Positions 17,684-62,897 of a DNA stretch of 64,000 bases are shown here, piece after piece. The DNA lies in the sequence record OZ346228.1. One strand, written 5' to 3'. How positions within the stretch are numbered: position 1 is the first letter of the stretch; each line of letters opens with the position of its first letter. A program made the position numbers and the translations under genes. Source of the DNA: a phage. A model generated the notes under the pieces. It saw only the letters and a list, made by a program, of their open reading frames with translations. It was not told the origin of the DNA and searched no databases.

Positions 17684-18002
17684 TCAAAAGGGGGCAACAA
17701 GCCCCACCAACCACAAAGAGGATAAAAAATCATGGCTATTATTGCAAAGACCGAGATCGTAGGCTTAGATTCTATTCTCCTCGCATATGAGGAAGCTATA
17801 GAAATGTATGTGGTTTCCTATGGTGAGTATATCCGTGAATATGAATCTATTGATCTAGCTTTTGAATGTTATATTCGCCAGGTTAATAAAGCGTACGATG
17901 ATTATCGTTAAAATAGTTTGACAACAAACAACCATCTAACAAAGCATAATACATAAGGTGGTAGAATGATCCGCCACCCGGAACAAAGAAGAGGTAAACA
18001 CC

Positions 18003-18248
18003 ATGAAAAGCAATAAAGGTTATAACGGTTACAAAAACAAAACTCATTGGAATGTAAGCCTTTGGATTAATAACGATGAGTCATTGTACCGGTTGGCCCA
18101 AGGATTTATTAACGCTAATGCTAATCGTAATGATGCGGCGCGGGATATGATGCTTTTTCTGGAGCTAACCGGACAAGATAAGACCCCGGACGGCTTCAAG
18201 TACAGCACTACGGCGATCCGTGCCGCGATGGTTGGAATGAAACACTAA
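18003..18248 (+). CDS. hypothetical protein
   Basis: RBS aagaggtaaa. Confidence 0.5.
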   Translation: MKSNKGYNGYKNKTHWNVSLWINNDESLYRLAQGFINANANRNDAARDMMLFLELTGQDKTPDGFKYSTTAIRAAMVGMKH

Positions 18249-18399
18249 AAGCACATAGCCGCCAGATCTCAGAATTTACGTACGCTCACCAGTCTATAGC
18301 CTGCTAAGTATTTATTCCAACCATAGAATAACGGAATAGTCAATACCTGCATAAAATAATTATTCGTGTAAACTGCATAACATAAATCGGCTAGGATGT

Positions 18400-19150
18400 C
18401 AACATTTTTCGTAAACAGCTCGAAATTATAACGGTGAGTTATAATAAACAGAGAAATCTTTAGTCGTCTAATGTTTACTGTACATTACTATACTGACTGG
18501 AATCATTAGATGACTAAGAGAAAGATAAGAAATCATTAACAATGCAATTGTTTTATTCGTAACAATAAGGCAACTATGCAAACGGATGGCATGGCGCGAC
18601 GGAGTCGCGACATAATATAAAAGCAGTAACCATCACCCCCGTGATAGTTTGTCTGCAAACTATTAATCAGATCATAGTTGCCTTGTATTTAGTTAATCAT
18701 GACATAACAAGCAAGGCAACTATAGATCTGCTAATAGTTGCCCTGCTTTTATATTATGTCATAGATTATTAGCCTGTTAATTGTTAGTCAGTCAAATCAA
18801 CAACGTTATCATTTCAGTCTTTATTGTTGTTGATCGTTATTGTTATCATGCAAACGAATGGCATGGCTTATCATTTTTGAGTAAACAATCTATACGTGAA
18901 CAGTGAGGCATGCAATAGTAAGGGCGGGAATAATGAGAGTGTAAACTGTCAGGCATGTCAATTATATCAATCGTGTCAGTTATGTCACCATTATGTCAGA
19001 CAAGTTTTTCTCCTCTTTGTCAAGTGCTGCATGAAAAATTTACAATCTTGTATGGTAGCATTTTTGCGGCCCTGTTTACATTCAGTATTGTATGTATAAT
19101 CCTTGTTGTGTGGGCGTTTAGACGTCTAGACGGTCAGAAGTCTGCAGGTT
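18400..19150. repeat. palindrome- and repeat-dense non-coding region between convergent transcription blocks (candidate origin or packaging/regulatory region)
   Basis: 18 bp inverted repeat gacataatataaaagcag / ctgcttttatattatgtc; aaggcaactat / atagttgcctt inverted repeats; direct repeat atgcaaacgRatggcatggc (2 copies); hairpins gcgcgac-gga-gtcgcg and atagtttg-tctgc-aaactat. Confidence 0.55.
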
Positions 19151-20435
19151 AATATCTAATCTATCGGCTGCTAACTATATCCCACACAAATAGTAAGAAA
19201 TATAATTGTTATGTGCGTAAACAGTAACTCATGTTATCAATCCCTGTATGTATCGCCAGTGGTGCGCATAATGGGTATTATGTTAAATTGCCCGTAATGA
19301 TAATGGTTCTCACAATGATAGGTATTCTCATTCCCCCACACAAAATAGATTGCAAATGTTGTGCCACTATGTGAACGGCCTCACCTATTAATTTGCCTCA
19401 CTGCCTCGATATTTGAGAATTATCATAAGAATGAGAAGTATTCCCATTTCGTCCGCCTGGCAGCACTCCAGTCGCTACGGCTCAGAACAGGGCAGAATTG
19501 TGTCCATTCAGATATTTCTGTCTGGCTCTTCAGGTCTGTGTGGGAAAAGTCCACCTCTCTGGCGGGGCATGGGGTCATGACGGGAAAATTGCAGGTCAAT
19601 TAAAAAATTTACGTGGTGTATGAAGCGCTCTTCAGGTAAGGCATGTATTATGGGATGAAACCCTCTTCAGGCAATGATATTTGTGGGTGTGATATTTGCT
19701 GGAAAGCCAGATATGACGGGACTCCCGGCGGGGCAGGGGTAGTACAGACAGGGGAAATATGGAGGATGTGGTTAGGTGAATTGATCAGACAGGTAGAGTA
19801 TGGAATATGTTACAGGTATGTTAAATAGGGCGGCTGAATATCTGTAGGATTTGTGTGTAAAATCAAAGACTTAAGTGGTGTTGTGGTATTTTCTATAAAT
19901 AATTCAAGTTTAATAGGTAATATTTGTCTCTATTCGCTTTGTGTGGTAAACAGATTCAGATGAGATTGGTTTACAAGCGTATACATAATATACAAATTAA
20001 AGATACAAGAAACCCCCCTCCCCCTTCGGCTACCATTCACCTTTTCCTCTGACTGGTACTTAAACACTTATTCAGACTCTTCAGGTTATCACCCATATAT
20101 CATATGGCAGTGACTGGTGTCCTCCGGCCCCTCTTTCGTCACCCGTCCGCTTCGCCATGCTAATGCCATAGCCAATGGTTCGGTTGTTCACCCTGTTCAC
20201 TCAGGTGTATCTCCATACCCCTTCAAAACGAAGAGAACAGAAAACCCGAATTACTCGGTAAAAGAAAAGAGAAGAACTTAATTTTATCAGGATAGGCAAG
20301 AATGTCAAGGCATGACTGCTCACTAAACAAGCAAACAGTCATGTGTGGGAGGTAAGTGATTGTGGTGGTAGGAAATTTAGTTGAAAGATGTGTTATAGGT
20401 GCTTCCAGCACTTTAGCCGGGCAGCTAATTGTGTG

Positions 20436-23745: not shown

Positions 23746-24095
23746 TATTCGTCCTCCTCTTCGGTGCCTGCTTCCAGTAATAAGTTAAGAATATCTTCTG
23801 CACAAGGCTCATAGAACTCTTGGCCTTCATTATCGATGATTTTGTAGTCATCTCCACGAATAATCAGGGGATCACTCTCAAAATTATCGAGACCTTTAAC
23901 AACGACAACACGATCGATTGCCATCATTGTAAGAACTTTATCGACATCTTCCTCTGCTACACCATACTGCAGCAGAATGTCTTTGGTAGGAGGAACAGCA
24001 TCCACCACAACGCCGTTACCAAAACCTTCTGGAAGTTTAGCTAAAATATCTTCCGGAACCACATTCACATCAAAACCGGTAATTTCTACTTTCAT
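23745..24095 (-). CDS. small acidic protein (paralogue array member)
   Basis: MKVEITG... start; acidic C-terminus. Confidence 0.5.
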   Translation of the reverse strand: MKVEITGFDVNVVPEDILAKLPEGFGNGVVVDAVPPTKDILLQYGVAEEDVDKVLTMMAIDRVVVVKGLDNFESDPLIIRGDDYKIIDNEGQEFYEPCAEDILNLLLEAGTEEEDE

Positions 24096-24356
24096 TTACA
24101 GCACCTCTTCGTCAACTACTTCATAAAAATGGCCTGGGATTGCAATAGCGTTCTCACCTTCACCTGCAAACACAGTTCCGTCAAGAATCAACATCATAAG
24201 AATTTCTGTAATATCCTCTTCCGGAACGTTGCCAAAACCTTTAATCAGCTCGTAGGTTGGAATATTTACATCTAAGATGTCACCATCTTTAGAACGGAAA
24301 TCAACACCGTCCTGAATCTCTGCCGTTTCAAGGTTTTTCAATTTAATCTTCATCAA
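24096..24356 (-). CDS. small acidic protein (paralogue array member)
   Basis: MMKIKLKNL... start; ...YEVVDEE C-terminus. Confidence 0.5.
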   Translation of the reverse strand: MMKIKLKNLETAEIQDGVDFRSKDGDILDVNIPTYELIKGFGNVPEEDITEILMMLILDGTVFAGEGENAIAIPGHFYEVVDEEVL

Positions 24357-24432
24357 TCGGTCTCCTGTCTTGTTAAGATGAAGGTATTATTTCACACAGG
24401 GTTGGCGTTGTCAACACCTGTGTGCAAGAAAA

Positions 24433-24828
24433 TTACTGAAACAGTGCGGATAAATTACCTTCTGGTGGGAACTTATCTGCCAAAAACGGTGTTAGCACAG
24501 TAGCCTTCTGAAGATCTGGGGTCCACTCGTTGTTCAGAACATCCCAGTAGTACGCAATGTTGCTGTGTGGGTGCCGCATTACGAACTTTTTCCCTTCGTA
24601 GTCGTCTGAAACCTCTACAGAAGAAATAACAACAGAATCTTCAAGGGTTTCTTCATAGAAAGATCCCCCTTCAAATTTCCAACGAGATGCAAGAGCCCCT
24701 GCCTTGAACGCTGCAGATAACGGACTGTCGGCAAGAACATACATTTCTTGCACTCTGTCGCTGCGATCTTTGCTTCTTACGTTGTATACAGTATCTGAGC
24801 TATACTCAACACGGTATAGGCTTACCAT
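24433..24828 (-). CDS. hypothetical protein (paralogue of 26640-27038)
   Basis: Shared HPxS...YW...WTP...ATxL motif pattern with 26640-27038. Confidence 0.55.
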   Translation of the reverse strand: MVSLYRVEYSSDTVYNVRSKDRSDRVQEMYVLADSPLSAAFKAGALASRWKFEGGSFYEETLEDSVVISSVEVSDDYEGKKFVMRHPHSNIAYYWDVLNNEWTPDLQKATVLTPFLADKFPPEGNLSALFQ

Positions 24829-25187
24829 TACCGCACCTCCTCAATAACTTCCACATCTGAACCTACCACAAATGCAAAAGGACAGGTTTCATGAAAGACA
24901 TCTGGATCGCCGCCAAGCTTGCTAACAATCTCTCCACCACTAATAAACACAAGCTCACCGATATTCATCAGATTGCTGAAATAGTACCCATAATGATTAA
25001 AGAATGCAGCAGGGTCAGGTAGACTGGTAGCCTCAAGCACTACATCGGTTGAGGTTACTTTCTTATCATAACCTCTCGCCTTTTGAGATGCAAGATCTGC
25101 AGAATCCTCAGGAGACCGGAGATGCACAGGAATTGTTTCACCAATAAAGCGTACTTTCATATTATCACCCAACAACCATAGCTTCAA
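24828..25187 (-). CDS. small protein (paralogue array member)
   Basis: C-terminus VVGSDVEVIEE resembles other array members. Confidence 0.5.
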   Translation of the reverse strand: MKLWLLGDNMKVRFIGETIPVHLRSPEDSADLASQKARGYDKKVTSTDVVLEATSLPDPAAFFNHYGYYFSNLMNIGELVFISGGEIVSKLGGDPDVFHETCPFAFVVGSDVEVIEEVR

Positions 25188-25428
25188 AAGGAGTCATGAA
25201 CGAATAAACGGCATCATCATCTGCTTCAGGGAATGCTCCCAAAGACTTCATATCTGAACCCTTGACAAATACAAGGTTTTGATCAAAGGCTTCTTGGGGG
25301 TCAATCCGATACATATTTCGTAGAATATCGCTTACCTCCTCATCAAGAGGTGAGTATGCTGTGCACGTTTTTCCGATCAAGCTTTGAGAATCAGGGTATC
25401 CACCTGAAGTTTTAAAATAAACAATCAT
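25165..25428 (-). CDS. small protein (paralogue array member)
   Basis: ORF; C-terminus ...FEAMVVG. Confidence 0.45.
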   Translation of the reverse strand: MIVYFKTSGGYPDSQSLIGKTCTAYSPLDEEVSDILRNMYRIDPQEAFDQNLVFVKGSDMKSLGAFPEADDDAVYSFMTPFEAMVVG

Positions 25429-25519
25429 ATAGTATCACCTCTGGTAAGAGATTGGGATTCCTTTCCCACAAATAATTACAAATCTTCCTTATCGAGGAAG
25501 TATGCTAATCCAAGCAGGA

Positions 25520-25789
25520 TTATTCCTCTACAATCTCATACACATCAGGAGTTACAATCAACTCTTCTCCGTTACCCGGTGCAACAAACACCACCAAACC
25601 TTCAGGTGTGTGCTTTTTAGCCATCTCGATAACATCTTCTCGCAGAGCTGGCTCCATCAGATCAAAACCTTCACCCAGGGCATCACGAACCACCTTCATA
25701 TAGTCAACTGGTTGTGCTTCAACAATCATGCCTTCAACCAGTCCACAGTTTTTGTCTGCCAGCTCAGTTTTGAATAATTTAATTTTCAT
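25520..25789 (-). CDS. small acidic protein (paralogue array member)
   Basis: MKIKLFK... start; ...YEIVEE C-terminus. Confidence 0.5.
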   Translation of the reverse strand: MKIKLFKTELADKNCGLVEGMIVEAQPVDYMKVVRDALGEGFDLMEPALREDVIEMAKKHTPEGLVVFVAPGNGEELIVTPDVYEIVEE

Positions 25790-25926
25790 TTAGAGGTCTC
25801 CTCAATTATTTGATATTAATAGCCGTAACCTAACACATTAACTACAACTGCGATTGCAAACATAATTTCAAAGCATGCAATCTCTACATTTGGGACTAAT
25901 TTCTTAATCACACCCATTGTAGCACC

Positions 25927-26247
25927 TCATTCTCCAAAGTCAATCTTTACTTTGCCTTTCCCCTTACCTTTCTTTCCACCGCATTTAGCCAGCTGACGTG
26001 CTGCAACATCTACCATACGGTCAGTTGCCTCGTAAGCATCACTGCCTTTAGCCTTGGCAATAACTTCTTTTCCAGAATTGTCAAAAATGAACGCCATAAC
26101 TTCCTGGTGATCATTTTCAACTTTTACACTTACACGTGCATAGTTAACAGAGGGATGTAAACGCTCCAGCTTGGACATTTTGCGGGAAATAAAAGATACC
26201 ATACCTTCTGTGATTTCTACATTGTTGCCAGTGATTTCAATTTGCAT
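25927..26247 (-). CDS. hpf: ribosome hibernation promoting factor / RaiA (YfiA) family homologue
   Basis: MQIEITGNNVEITEGM...KLERL...VSVKVE...ARQLAK is colinear with bacterial HPF (MQLNITGNNVEITEAL...KLEQY...VVLKVE...ARQLTK); Lys/Gly-rich C-terminal tail. Confidence 0.8.
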   Translation of the reverse strand: MQIEITGNNVEITEGMVSFISRKMSKLERLHPSVNYARVSVKVENDHQEVMAFIFDNSGKEVIAKAKGSDAYEATDRMVDVAARQLAKCGGKKGKGKGKVKIDFGE

Positions 26248-26331
26248 AACGTGTTCCTTTTAAGGAAGAGGGAATAACTATCTCTCTTTGAAAACAATGA
26301 TACTAAATCTGAAGCGTTGTGTCAACAGTTT

Positions 26332-26622
26332 TTACAGCTTGTTGTCGATAGTTTTTAAAATATCCACAGCAAGATCTGCCATTTTTCGAACATACTCTGC
26401 AAACTCAACAGGATCCTTGATCAAAGAATTCACAGGGTCGTACCCTAGAGCGTTTAAAATGGCTGCAGCATCTACAACCTTCTCATCATTTGCGAAGATC
26501 TCTCCGTCAAACTTGTAGGTCCATTTTGAGTCAACCTTAGCAGAGCAGGGTTTGTCCATGCTTGTTACACCATCGTCTTTAAACTCTCCTGCGTTATCAA
26601 TATTTAGAATTAAATCCATCAT
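26332..26622 (-). CDS. hypothetical protein
   Basis: ORF in compact array. Confidence 0.5.
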   Translation of the reverse strand: MMDLILNIDNAGEFKDDGVTSMDKPCSAKVDSKWTYKFDGEIFANDEKVVDAAAILNALGYDPVNSLIKDPVEFAEYVRKMADLAVDILKTIDNKL

Positions 26623-26639
26623 GGTGACACCTCACTGTT

Positions 26640-27038
26640 TCAGTTTAGCTTTTCTTCAACAACCCCATAACTTGGGGCAGAGTCAAGAGCTTTCTGGTTT
26701 AAAAGTGGCGTAGCAGAATCTGCAAACGGTGTCCAAGTTTTTGTTCTGGAATTCCAGTAATGCTTCACTCTGGAATCTGGATGCACTATAACAAAAACTT
26801 TTTCACTTGTCAACACATTAATTTCTTCTACACCCTTGCTGATAATTTCTCCGTCATAGCCCCCAGTCTGGTATCCTTCGTACCAGGTTCTTGCATAGGC
26901 ATAGCCAGCCTGCCAGCATGCAGCCTCCTCCGAGGTGGAGACTACGTAGAAGTCTTTCTCAAATTCCGGAATACGCCCTTGCTTTACGCTCCAAGCTCCG
27001 CGAATTTTCATTGTTACTTTGAAAAGCTTGTTCTTCAT
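26640..27038 (-). CDS. hypothetical protein (paralogue of 24433-24828)
   Basis: Shared motif pattern with 24433-24828. Confidence 0.55.
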   Translation of the reverse strand: MKNKLFKVTMKIRGAWSVKQGRIPEFEKDFYVVSTSEEAACWQAGYAYARTWYEGYQTGGYDGEIISKGVEEINVLTSEKVFVIVHPDSRVKHYWNSRTKTWTPFADSATPLLNQKALDSAPSYGVVEEKLN

Positions 27039-27039
27039 A

Positions 27040-27294
27040 CTACCGCTCTACAATCTCTACGTCTGTTCCTACACCGAAGGCATAGTAATGTTCTTCCCCA
27101 AAGTAATACTTGGGGACACCCGCTTTGATCAGATCTAACCCGCGAATAAATACCACACCGTGTGATACAGTGGAATGCTTCTGACGCACAGGATCGTTGT
27201 CAGGCAACCATTCAAAGTACACCGCAGGTACAACCTTTCCCTTCAGGAAGGATTGTCCCAAGTAGACGTTAGAATCAAGAATTTTAACCTTCAT
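27040..27294 (-). CDS. small protein, MKVK-family paralogue
   Basis: MKVKILDSNVYLGQSFLKGKVV...GLDLIKAG...DVEIVER; clear paralogue of 27284-27511 and 30934-31167. Confidence 0.6.
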   Translation of the reverse strand: MKVKILDSNVYLGQSFLKGKVVPAVYFEWLPDNDPVRQKHSTVSHGVVFIRGLDLIKAGVPKYYFGEEHYYAFGVGTDVEIVER

Positions 27295-27511
27295 TCTCGT
27301 CCTCCACTATCTCTGCATCCTCACCAAGGGCAAAGTTGTAGGTCCACTGGCTGTCAAAGCAGTCTTGAGATGCACCAGCGGCAATAAGATCTGCACCTTT
27401 TATTTTTAAAAGGTCAGGATAATCTTCGTTAGGGATAGCGGTAAACACTTTCCCCACTAAGGGCTCCTGACCAATATAGAAGCTTGAATCTAAAACTTTA
27501 ACTTTCATCAA
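27284..27511 (-). CDS. small protein, MKVK-family paralogue
   Basis: MMKVKVLDSSFYIGQEPLVGKVF...KGADLIAAGA...AEIVED. Confidence 0.6.
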   Translation of the reverse strand: MMKVKVLDSSFYIGQEPLVGKVFTAIPNEDYPDLLKIKGADLIAAGASQDCFDSQWTYNFALGEDAEIVEDENEG

Positions 27512-27795
27512 CGGTCTCCCTCAGGCGGTTGTGGGACGTAAACACTGTTACGAATATCGTCAGCAGTGTAGTAATAAGTGGTTCCAACCCTATCTCGGGC
27601 TGCAATGTACTCTGCTATACCAACAAGTGCCATTGATTTGGTGGCGTATCTTCCCCACTCGTTAGCTCCCCAGTAGAATTTAGACCAGTAGGGAATAAGA
27701 CCGAACAAATATACCTTTTGACGAACTTCCCAGTAAGTGCCTTTTCCGACAAGTTTAAACTCTACTTCACTACTGTTAATCTTTTTCATTATCAA
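27508..27795 (-). CDS. hypothetical protein
   Basis: ORF in compact array. Confidence 0.5.
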   Translation of the reverse strand: MIMKKINSSEVEFKLVGKGTYWEVRQKVYLFGLIPYWSKFYWGANEWGRYATKSMALVGIAEYIAARDRVGTTYYYTADDIRNSVYVPQPPEGDR

Positions 27796-28088
27796 TCTCC
27801 CTCTACCGTGGTCGGATTGTCAGTAAGAAATTGAGCATTGGCTGGAGGCACGCCTGACATTTTCCACACAACCATAAGTTTATAACCAGGCACTCTATTA
27901 AGTGCAGATCGAGTAGAGTTTGTGCACGTATACTTTCGCTTTCCAAACCCGTTCTCCATCATAATCCAGTACCCAGTATCTTTGTCACCAGGTATCGGTA
28001 GACCACCTTCATCAACCCACTGAATTGACCACGGCACGATGGCTACAGCTTTATATTTAAACTTTTTAAACCACTCAAAAAGTTTCAT
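27792..28088 (-). CDS. hypothetical protein
   Basis: ORF in compact array. Confidence 0.5.
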   Translation of the reverse strand: MKLFEWFKKFKYKAVAIVPWSIQWVDEGGLPIPGDKDTGYWIMMENGFGKRKYTCTNSTRSALNRVPGYKLMVVWKMSGVPPANAQFLTDNPTTVEGD

Positions 28089-62084: not shown

Positions 62085-62159
62085 GCCCTGTTAGCTTAGT
62101 GGATAAAGCAGCGGCCTTCTAAGCCGTTGACACTGGTTCGAGTCCAGTACGGGGTGCCA
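62085..62159 (+). tRNA. tRNA-Arg (anticodon TCT)
   Basis: Manual fold: D stem GCTT/AAGC, anticodon loop CTTCTAA, T loop TTCGAGT, 3' CCA encoded; acceptor stem has two G-U pairs. Confidence 0.7.
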
Positions 62160-62163
62160 AATT

Positions 62164-62250
62164 GGGGAGTTATCCCGTAGAGGTAGCGGTGTAGACTGTA
62201 AATCTATTGTCATTGCGACTCGGGTGGTTCGACTCCACCACTCCCCACCA
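62164..62250 (+). tRNA. tRNA-Tyr (anticodon GTA), long variable arm
   Basis: Acceptor GGGGAGT/ACTCCCC, anticodon loop CTGTAAA, T loop TTCGACT, CCA encoded. Confidence 0.8.
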
Positions 62251-62364
62251 AATTTATATTTTTAGATGCATAAATAATACAGATAATGGCATTGATATTT
62301 ATCGTCGTTTATACTAGTCACTAACTGCTCGAAAATCAGTGTCATTATCAGTATTATTTATAAA

Positions 62365-62455
62365 GGAGGGTAGGGAGCAATGGTGCTCAATCGGTCTTGA
62401 AAACCGTCCCGTTGAGGATGACTCGATGATGGTTCGATTCCATTACTCTCCGCCA
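62365..62455 (+). tRNA. tRNA-Ser (anticodon TGA), long variable arm
   Basis: Acceptor GGAGGGT/ACTCTCC, anticodon loop CTTGAAA, T loop TTCGATT, CCA encoded. Confidence 0.7.
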
Positions 62456-62553
62456 CATTGTTGACCTTGTAATTAAGCGAAAGTCGGAAGCAGAACCGGA
62501 TTATCAAATGTTACAGTCGTCATCGCCGACTAGCAACATGGTCAACATACTGA

Positions 62554-62652
62554 GCTAGGTAAGCCCTTTGGCAAGGGCGAGGATTTTTAATCCTGAAAAT
62601 AGACGAGGTAGTCGTTGAATACATAGGTGGTTCGATTCCATCACCTAGCACC
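62554..62652 (+). tRNA. atypical tRNA-like gene; anticodon loop TTTTTAA (Lys-TTT-like), about 28 nt extra between anticodon and T arms; may be a pseudo-tRNA
   Basis: Acceptor GCTAGGT/ACCTAGC, D arm GCCC-TTTGGCAA-GGGC, T loop TTCGATT; variable region far longer than class I; CCA not fully encoded. Confidence 0.35.
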
Positions 62653-62657
62653 TTTTT

Positions 62658-62733
62658 GCTGATGTAGCACAATCGGTAGTGCAATTGATTTGTAATCAAT
62701 AGGTTGTAGGTTCAAGTCCTGCCATCAGCACCA
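62658..62733 (+). tRNA. tRNA-Thr (anticodon TGT)
   Basis: Acceptor GCTGATG/CATCAGC, anticodon stem-loop ATTGA-TTTGTAA-TCAAT, T loop TTCAAGT, CCA encoded. Confidence 0.8.
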
Positions 62734-62734
62734 A

Positions 62735-62809
62735 GGCCCTGTAGCTGGAAGGTTCAAGCAAGCGACTCATAATCGCCAGACGGTGGTTCAATTCCACCCA
62801 GGGCCACCA
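62735..62809 (+). tRNA. tRNA-Met/Ile2-type (anticodon CAT)
   Basis: Acceptor GGCCCTG/CAGGGCC, anticodon loop CTCATAA, T loop TTCAATT, CCA encoded. Confidence 0.8.
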
Positions 62810-62820
62810 AATAGTAAATA

Positions 62821-62897
62821 CTCCGCGTAGCTCAGCTTGGTAGAGCGCCTGATTTGGGATCAGGAGGTCGAGTGTTCGAATCACTCCGTGGAGACCA
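62821..62897 (+). tRNA. tRNA-Pro (anticodon TGG)
   Basis: C1-G72 acceptor, D stem GCTC/GAGC, anticodon stem-loop CCTGA-TTTGGGA-TCAGG, T loop TTCGAAT, CCA encoded. Confidence 0.8.

Follow-up and report, generated by a model that had tools for sequence, protein, structure and literature searches.

A phage-encoded ribosome hibernation factor (HPF/RaiA) homologue conserved in Vequintavirus coliphages

Does a small reading frame in a coliphage genome encode a ribosome hibernation factor, and if so, what might a lytic phage use such a protein for? The question is raised by an ORF on the minus strand of the window, the 64,000-nucleotide stretch of phage DNA that was analysed (OZ346228.1), which an earlier, sequence-only reading had taken for a homologue of bacterial HPF and RaiA. 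The ORF is near certain to encode a protein of the HPF/RaiA family (Ribosomal_S30AE). It is the single-domain Vequintavirus orthologue of rV5 gp144 and is closest to the short HPF of Gammaproteobacteria. The gene is already known: its annotation goes back to 2006, and a 2019 study described and tested it. The present analysis adds dN/dS-based selection, synteny in a diverged lineage, a consensus promoter-like site, the lack of a phage RMF, and an altered rRNA-contact surface. The locus comprises the following features:

25927..26247, minus strand: hpf-like coding sequence, 106 aa plus stop, orthologue of rV5 ORF144 (ABI79209); supported by the ORF listing, PF02482, TIGR00741, and identity to annotated phage genes
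25978..26247, minus strand: HPF/RaiA core domain, residues 1-90; AlphaFold block with pLDDT 83-95, Foldseek rmsd of 1.1-1.6 Å for the best-matching HPF chains of V. cholerae and E. coli
25930..25977, minus strand: Lys/Gly-rich C-terminal tail, residues 91-106 (GKKGKGKGKVKIDFGE), predicted to be disordered; low pLDDT, net charge +4
26254..26259, minus strand: Shine-Dalgarno-like AAGGAA, 6 nt before the hpf ATG, read from the sequence
26297..26325, minus strand: sigma-70-type promoter-like site TTGACA-17-TATCAT; 11/12 matches in a consensus scan

The ORF starts with ATG and its 106-aa translation is MQIEITGNNVEITEGMVSFISRKMSKLERLHPSVNYARVSVKVENDHQEVMAFIFDNSGKEVIAKAKGSDAYEATDRMVDVAARQLAKCGGKKGKGKGKVKIDFGE. 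The sequence-only reading had described a 106-aa HPF-like ORF with a Lys/Gly-rich tail, and all the motifs that it quoted are present in this translation. Residues 3-89 matched positions 1-83 of the 88 positions of the Pfam profile PF02482 (Ribosomal_S30AE) with E=4.2e-15 and 56.7 bits, against a gathering cut-off of 23.7, and the broad HPF/YfiA model of NCBIfam, TIGR00741, scored 56.8 bits (E=2.5e-15; cut-off 40.9). Both profile matches are significant and above curated cut-offs, which supports the proposed homology to HPF/RaiA; a similarity of this size is not expected by chance. The best subfamily model was the short-HPF equivalog NF007780/PRK10470 with 65.2 bits, under its 125-bit cut-off, and the RaiA/YfiA equivalog NF007654/PRK10324 scored 22.8 bits, below its cut-off of 158. 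E. coli HPF chains (2rql, 4v8h, and 6h4n) were the best matches among PDB sequences, with E=4e-15 to 2e-14 and colinearity over residues 1-90, and the identity between E. coli HPF and the phage protein was about 43-44%; RaiA chains matched at E=0.02-0.08 only. In PHROGs, the protein belonged to a family of its own, phrog_12469 (“unknown function”; E=1e-69), and the annotated S30EA family phrog_8990 was matched at 1e-7. The Pfam search found no second domain in the 106-aa protein. A long-HPF reading is ruled out by this result and by the 106-aa length, the C-terminal dimerisation domain being absent.

The AlphaFold2 model, which was built from a five-sequence alignment, had a mean pLDDT of 84 and a pTM of 0.74. 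The modelled elements were beta1 (residues 2-8), alpha1 (14-30), beta2 (34-43), beta3 (48-56), beta4 (61-68), and alpha2 (71-90), and the pLDDT of the tail fell below 50 at residues 91-96, 98-101, and 103-106. All 36 Foldseek matches in the PDB with E<=0.001 were HPF, RaiA, or protein Y. The top matches were the HPF of V. cholerae (4hei, whose best chain superposed at an rmsd of 1.1 Å) and that of E. coli (2rql, 1.6 Å; 6h4n, 1.2 Å; 43% identity). The sequence-only reading had named the fold as a check on its claim, and the predicted fold is compatible with HPF, as the best HPF chains superpose at an rmsd of 1.1-1.6 Å.

The window belongs to a Vequintavirus (rV5-like coliphage). Over the 4 kb around hpf, the window shares 99.4% identity with Escherichia phage nomo and 90% or more with 121 phage records, nearly all of them from Vequintavirus. 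A 93-100% identical protein was found in 118 of the 119 matching records, including the rV5 (DQ832317) counterpart ORF144 (ABI79209), and the orthologues have been annotated as “sigma 54 modulation factor,” “hpf,” “ribosome hibernation factor,” and “RaiA.” Some phage records mislabel the true hpf gene as “ATP-dependent protease La.” In the records of nomo and nom, which cite APCEc02, the name “sigma 54 modulation factor” is also given to the neighbouring 89-aa ORF (25520..25789, minus strand). This second candidate had no Pfam match at E<=0.1 and was rejected as a propagated misannotation. Eighteen GenBank records labelled “Campylobacter phage” (MG0656xx, host C. jejuni) also match positions 24000-28000 of the window, and the three that were tabulated are 96.8-97.1% identical; their C. 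jejuni host label is doubtful and may reflect contamination or mislabelling.

The placement in a phage gene array that had been described from the letters agrees with these comparisons: the window is rV5-like, and hpf lies behind the sigma-70-type promoter-like site, within a long array of small ORFs that share its strand. This putative site, which is a consensus match only, sits in the 84-nt gap upstream of hpf. The rV5 record (DQ832317) carries the annotation “Sigma70-type promoter; P144” 48 nt upstream of ORF144, a position corresponding to that of the promoter-like site in the window. It is reasonable to infer that hpf is expressed early or middle in infection because the array belongs to the rV5 transcription unit of genes 82-163, which includes the small-ORF array together with nucleotide-metabolism and replication genes. 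The other ORFs that overlap hpf on both strands are 30-36 aa long and had no support. The 3' end of hpf overlaps another sigma-70-like site, TTGACT-16-TACAAT with a TG-extended -10 element (25916-25943, minus strand). This site lies just upstream of a 33-aa ORF (25816-25917), which is annotated as ORF145 in rV5 and was not called in the diverged lineage L002.

The distribution of the gene was examined by several searches. At E<=0.01, a tblastn search with E. coli HPF matched 130 of 50,697 phage records. Vequintavirus accounts for about 119 of these; the remainder consisted of a few Listeria, Enterococcus, Xanthomonas, and unnamed phages and one bacterial contig. HPF is rare among phages overall, yet it is present in essentially all Vequintavirus records that match the region. 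A pattern scan of IMG/VR found two loci, both Vequintavirus-like (rV5-like), and a word-indexed protein search found five matches, all within the phage clade. Among 1.84 billion cluster representatives, an exhaustive HMMER scan detected a single phage-clade representative (one 50% cluster), P0004, a protein of 103 aa with 66% identity that is encoded on 44-126-kb contigs in the same small-ORF array (three places examined). The next relative after P0004 was 44% identical, and its N-terminal part was nearly identical to enterobacterial HPF. A tblastn search of the 50,697 phage records with what we take to be the E. coli RMF sequence found no RMF homologue.

Comparison with the syntenic diverged lineage showed that hpf was 65% identical, whereas its five syntenic neighbours were 38-58% identical, and synonymous sites were saturated between the two phage lineages (pS 0.78-0.85). 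Pairwise Nei-Gojobori dN/dS ranged from 0.04 to 0.17 among six Vequintavirus alleles, with dS of up to 0.7, and the reading frame was intact in about 119 genomes, tail truncations aside. The gene is under strong purifying selection. It is also old in the phage group and the best conserved of its neighbourhood.

No Pfam families were found in the nine small ORFs that flank hpf, which were considered as candidate partners. Two pairs of paralogues flank the gene on the minus strand, one at 24433-24828 and 26640-27038 (131 and 132 aa, 28% identical, E=5e-11) and the other at 27040-27294 and 27284-27511 (84 and 75 aa, 41% identical, E=7e-17), and several other neighbours have in common a C-terminal ...E(I/V)(V/I)E ending. 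Further away, at positions 17,900-20,400, the window contains about 2.5 kb without a long ORF on the coding (minus) strand. By position, this block corresponds to rV5 104013-106618, the ORF-free block of the rV5 paper. The lowest GC content of the profiled 15-28 kb, 0.358, was found at 18500-18999, and the cumulative GC skew peaked at about 19.5-20 kb. The block contains at least four copies of ATAGTTGCC(T/C)TG in both orientations at 18560-18751 and a perfect 18-nt inverted repeat (18609-18626/18743-18760), and it had no Rfam match. The sequence has an iteron-like appearance, and the block is a candidate for an origin of replication or a regulatory region. Seven tRNA genes were located at 62085-62897 on the plus strand, namely Arg-tct, Tyr-gta, Ser-tga, Thr-tgt, Met-cat, Pro-tgg, and an odd 99-nt tRNA-like gene (62554-62652) to which ARAGORN assigned a four-base anticodon, “atcc” (Rfam tRNA, 35.5 bits). 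The latter could be a tRNA with a long variable arm or an intron, a frameshift-suppressor-like tRNA, or a pseudogene.

Experimental work on this gene was reported by Mizuno et al. (2019, Nat Commun, PMC6375957), who listed HPF (PF02482) in rV5, FV3, JES-2013, FFH2, typing phage 14, and Cronobacter phage GAP32, grouped the proteins of the coliphages with the HPFs of Gammaproteobacteria, and selected the rV5 HPF for experiments. After arabinose induction of rV5 HPF in E. coli, the peptides GSDAYEATDR, VENDHQEVMAFIFDNSGK, and VKIDFGE were detected in crude extract by mass spectrometry (PMC6375957). The window protein contains all three of these peptides, which cover the core and the extreme C-terminus (VKIDFGE). 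Although present in crude extract, rV5 HPF peptides were absent from high-salt-purified 70S and 100S ribosomes; the 100S peak was unchanged upon expression, and the small 100S fraction was not visibly reduced either (PMC6375957). Three possible explanations were offered for the negative result, namely the growth phase of the cells, a real loss of binding, and the salt wash, and it was speculated that the viral HPF might compete with the cellular factor and prevent dimer formation (PMC6375957). In view of the wash and the growth phase, the fractionation does not decide whether the protein binds ribosomes. The presence of hpf was noted once more, “as already described,” by Mathieu et al. (2020, PMC6969025), for five gut phages of the rV5-like type. 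The gene is not discussed in the rV5 genome paper or the BASEL paper, and a literature search found no functional work on phage HPF after 2019; a mention of an Azotobacter phage concerns the Balon family, not HPF. The locus adds no new kind of element, since the family already features in the literature and GenBank and the first test of its function came out negative or inconclusive.

The ribosome-contact surface was compared by aligning the phage protein with 141 family representatives. The family-conserved residues K23, K26, L27, E44, G59, D70, Y72, D76, D80, R84, Q85, K88, and K92 were kept. Deviations from the family were observed at R17, replaced by V (basic in 84%), and D/E51, replaced by M (acidic in 81%), and in alpha-2, where V takes the place of K81 and G that of K90; these two positions are basic in 76% and 90% of the family, respectively, and are the equivalents of E. 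coli K80 and K89. P0004, from the diverged phage lineage, also deviates from the family at these four positions. In a preprint on HPF- and YfiA-bound ribosomes (10.1101/2025.10.07.680626), K80, R83, K87, K89, and K91 (E. coli numbering) are strictly conserved alpha-2 residues that make the same rRNA contacts in all species, T53 with residue 62 forms the m2G966 contact, and R83 contacts m4C1402. The phage protein keeps three of the five basic alpha-2 contacts (R84, K88, and K92), R84 being the equivalent of the m4C1402-contacting Arg83, and P0004 keeps two. At least four of the five are kept in 117 of the 141 representatives, and K80 and K89 are both missing in only six. The m2G966 patch is changed as well (T53 to F, H62 to I, and D51 to M), although only 47% of the family have Thr at position 53.

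The core of the phage protein has a net charge of -1 vs. -2 for the core of E. coli HPF, and the tail adds +4; the pI is 9.0 for the phage protein vs. 6.5 for E. coli HPF. The tail of P0004 is also basic and ends in K-W-D-Y, so that the tails of both lineages end in K-(I/W)-D-(F/Y). The RaiA tail runs towards the RMF site (preprint 10.1101/2025.10.07.680626). Two phages have a truncated tail: in Murica (L009, 630-745), a 1-nt deletion in a GGGGAAAGG run truncates the Lys/Gly tail to ...GKGKAK*, and APECc02 matches residues 1-89 only. These tail-less variants may be due to homopolymer sequencing error, or they may be natural variation with a tail that is dispensable in the laboratory.

The window contains an intact, selected, and expressible gene for an HPF-fold protein in a lytic coliphage. 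A phage ancestor would have captured hpf long ago, and purifying selection has kept the gene since. Host RNA polymerase would transcribe it from the sigma-70 promoter-like site, probably early. The protein would then bind vacant host 30S or 70S as HPF and RaiA do, in the channel between head and body that covers the A and P sites, via the kept contact residues K23, K26, R29, R84, K88, and K92. The extra basic tail would follow the rRNA in the direction of the mRNA path and of the RMF site and add non-specific rRNA affinity. Since several of the conserved contacts are substituted, the protein would probably bind less tightly than host HPF or in a more salt-sensitive manner. The outcome would be nearer to that of RaiA than to that of HPF, with idle 70S held or protected and 100S dimers not promoted, and the pool of idle ribosomes might thus be preserved during takeover or in slow-growing gut hosts. 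A RaiA-like action on 70S fits better than 100S promotion because the tail is longer, the RaiA tail leads to the RMF pocket, the phage has no RMF, and no 100S effect was seen on expression. Overall, binding at the canonical site of the ribosome with a RaiA-like outcome is slightly favoured. Against this stand the absence of rV5 HPF from salt-washed 70S and 100S ribosomes and the replacement of K80, K89, R17, D/E51, and T53. The truncated tail of the Murica record also counts against it, unless it is a sequencing error.

The negative fractionation and the replaced residues leave room for two rivals that deserve to be taken seriously. In the first, the protein occupies or briefly visits the HPF/RaiA site, blocks the RMF site with its tail, and binds so weakly that initiation factors, tRNA, and mRNA displace it. 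Hibernation of the host ribosome by 100S formation, HPF, or RaiA would be prevented or reversed, and phage mRNAs would have ribosomes at their disposal in cells that are in stationary phase or arrested by defence. A competitor of this kind, which we consider unlikely, was proposed by Mizuno et al. themselves (PMC6375957) and is consistent with a protein that keeps the fold while conserved rRNA-contact residues are replaced, that showed neither stable ribosome association nor a 100S increase (PMC6375957), and whose tail is longer than that of short HPF, in view of the course of the RaiA tail towards the RMF site. It is attractive because RMF-type hibernation accompanies defence-induced dormancy, RMF being induced in the defence-triggered dormancy response to phage (DRT2, PMC11100668). 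However, the small 100S fraction was not visibly lowered by expression in E. coli (PMC6375957), and the tail sequence is unrelated to that of RaiA. It is also possible, if doubtful, that the protein is no plain copy of the host factor but a re-tuned derivative, with two of the five alpha-2 contacts, R17, D/E51, and the m2G966-contacting Thr lost and a Lys/Gly tail gained, and that it serves as an easily displaced anti-hibernation or “placeholder” factor that blocks RMF, HPF, RaiA, or defence-induced shutdown and nucleases on idle ribosomes. If true, a placeholder role would make phage translation possible in gut E. coli that are in stationary phase or arrested by dormancy.

Alternatively, the HPF fold might have been neofunctionalised, so that the dsRBD-like fold and the basic tail bind another RNA or a protein and not the decoding channel. 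The negative ribosome fractionation (PMC6375957) and the loss of R17, D/E51, T53, K80, and K89 (E. coli numbering) in both phage lineages point in this direction, and a precedent exists for an HPF with a non-ribosomal protein partner, S. aureus HPF-YwlG (PMC9522360). Nevertheless, most family-conserved surface residues are kept, including R84, K23, K26, K88, and K92, and the high-salt wash may explain the negative fractionation, as Mizuno et al. note (PMC6375957); a new partner is quite unlikely. A decaying host-derived passenger gene (moron or pseudogene) without a phage function, to which the many small ORFs of unknown function in the region and the frameshifted tail in one record (Murica) might point, is most improbable and is ruled out as a reading by dN/dS (0.04-0.17) and conservation, the frame being intact in about 119 genomes and the gene, with its own promoter-like site and RBS, being the best conserved of the neighbourhood against a synonymous-saturated lineage.

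Phage ribosome-associated factors are one way in which viruses could control host translation. The selection, the early-type promoter-like site, the absence of RMF, the altered contact surface, and the basic tail may guide the design of binding and knockout experiments.

The favoured reading, canonical-site binding with a RaiA-like outcome, can be set against the known systems. Cronobacter phage GAP32 (AFC21633) and the members of PHROG 8990 also encode Ribosomal_S30AE proteins, but these are separate acquisitions; the GAP32 HPF is more divergent and clusters elsewhere (Mizuno et al., PMC6375957). The long HPF of Firmicutes and most other bacteria has a homologous N-terminal domain, whereas its C-terminal dimerisation domain is absent from the phage protein. 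E. coli short HPF (YhbH; 2rql, 6h4n, and 4v8h) has the same fold, residues 1-90 are colinear, and K23, K26, R83, K87, and K91 (E. coli numbering) are common to both proteins. In contrast, R17, D51, T53, K80, and K89 of E. coli short HPF are all replaced in the phage protein, and its tail has 6 residues vs. 16 residues in the Lys/Gly tail of the phage protein. Short HPF works with RMF and converts 90S into 100S dimers, whereas the phage has no RMF, although the host supplies it, and 100S was not promoted on expression.

E. coli RaiA (YfiA, protein Y) has the same fold and belongs to the same family, and it has a C-terminal extension past alpha-2, as does the phage protein. Its sequence match is much weaker, and in the alignment its tail is unrelated to the Lys/Gly tail of the phage. 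The C-terminal end of RaiA is acidic. The expected outcome of a RaiA-like action (70S, not 100S) agrees with the lack of a 100S effect of the phage protein. The closest known system is rV5 gp144 with its Vequintavirus orthologues, which is the same gene, with 97-100% amino-acid identity, in the same place in the small-ORF array, with the promoter-like site where rV5 has P144. The rV5 protein has 105 aa, whereas the allele of the window has 106 aa with Asn8-Asn9, the latter as in E. coli HPF.
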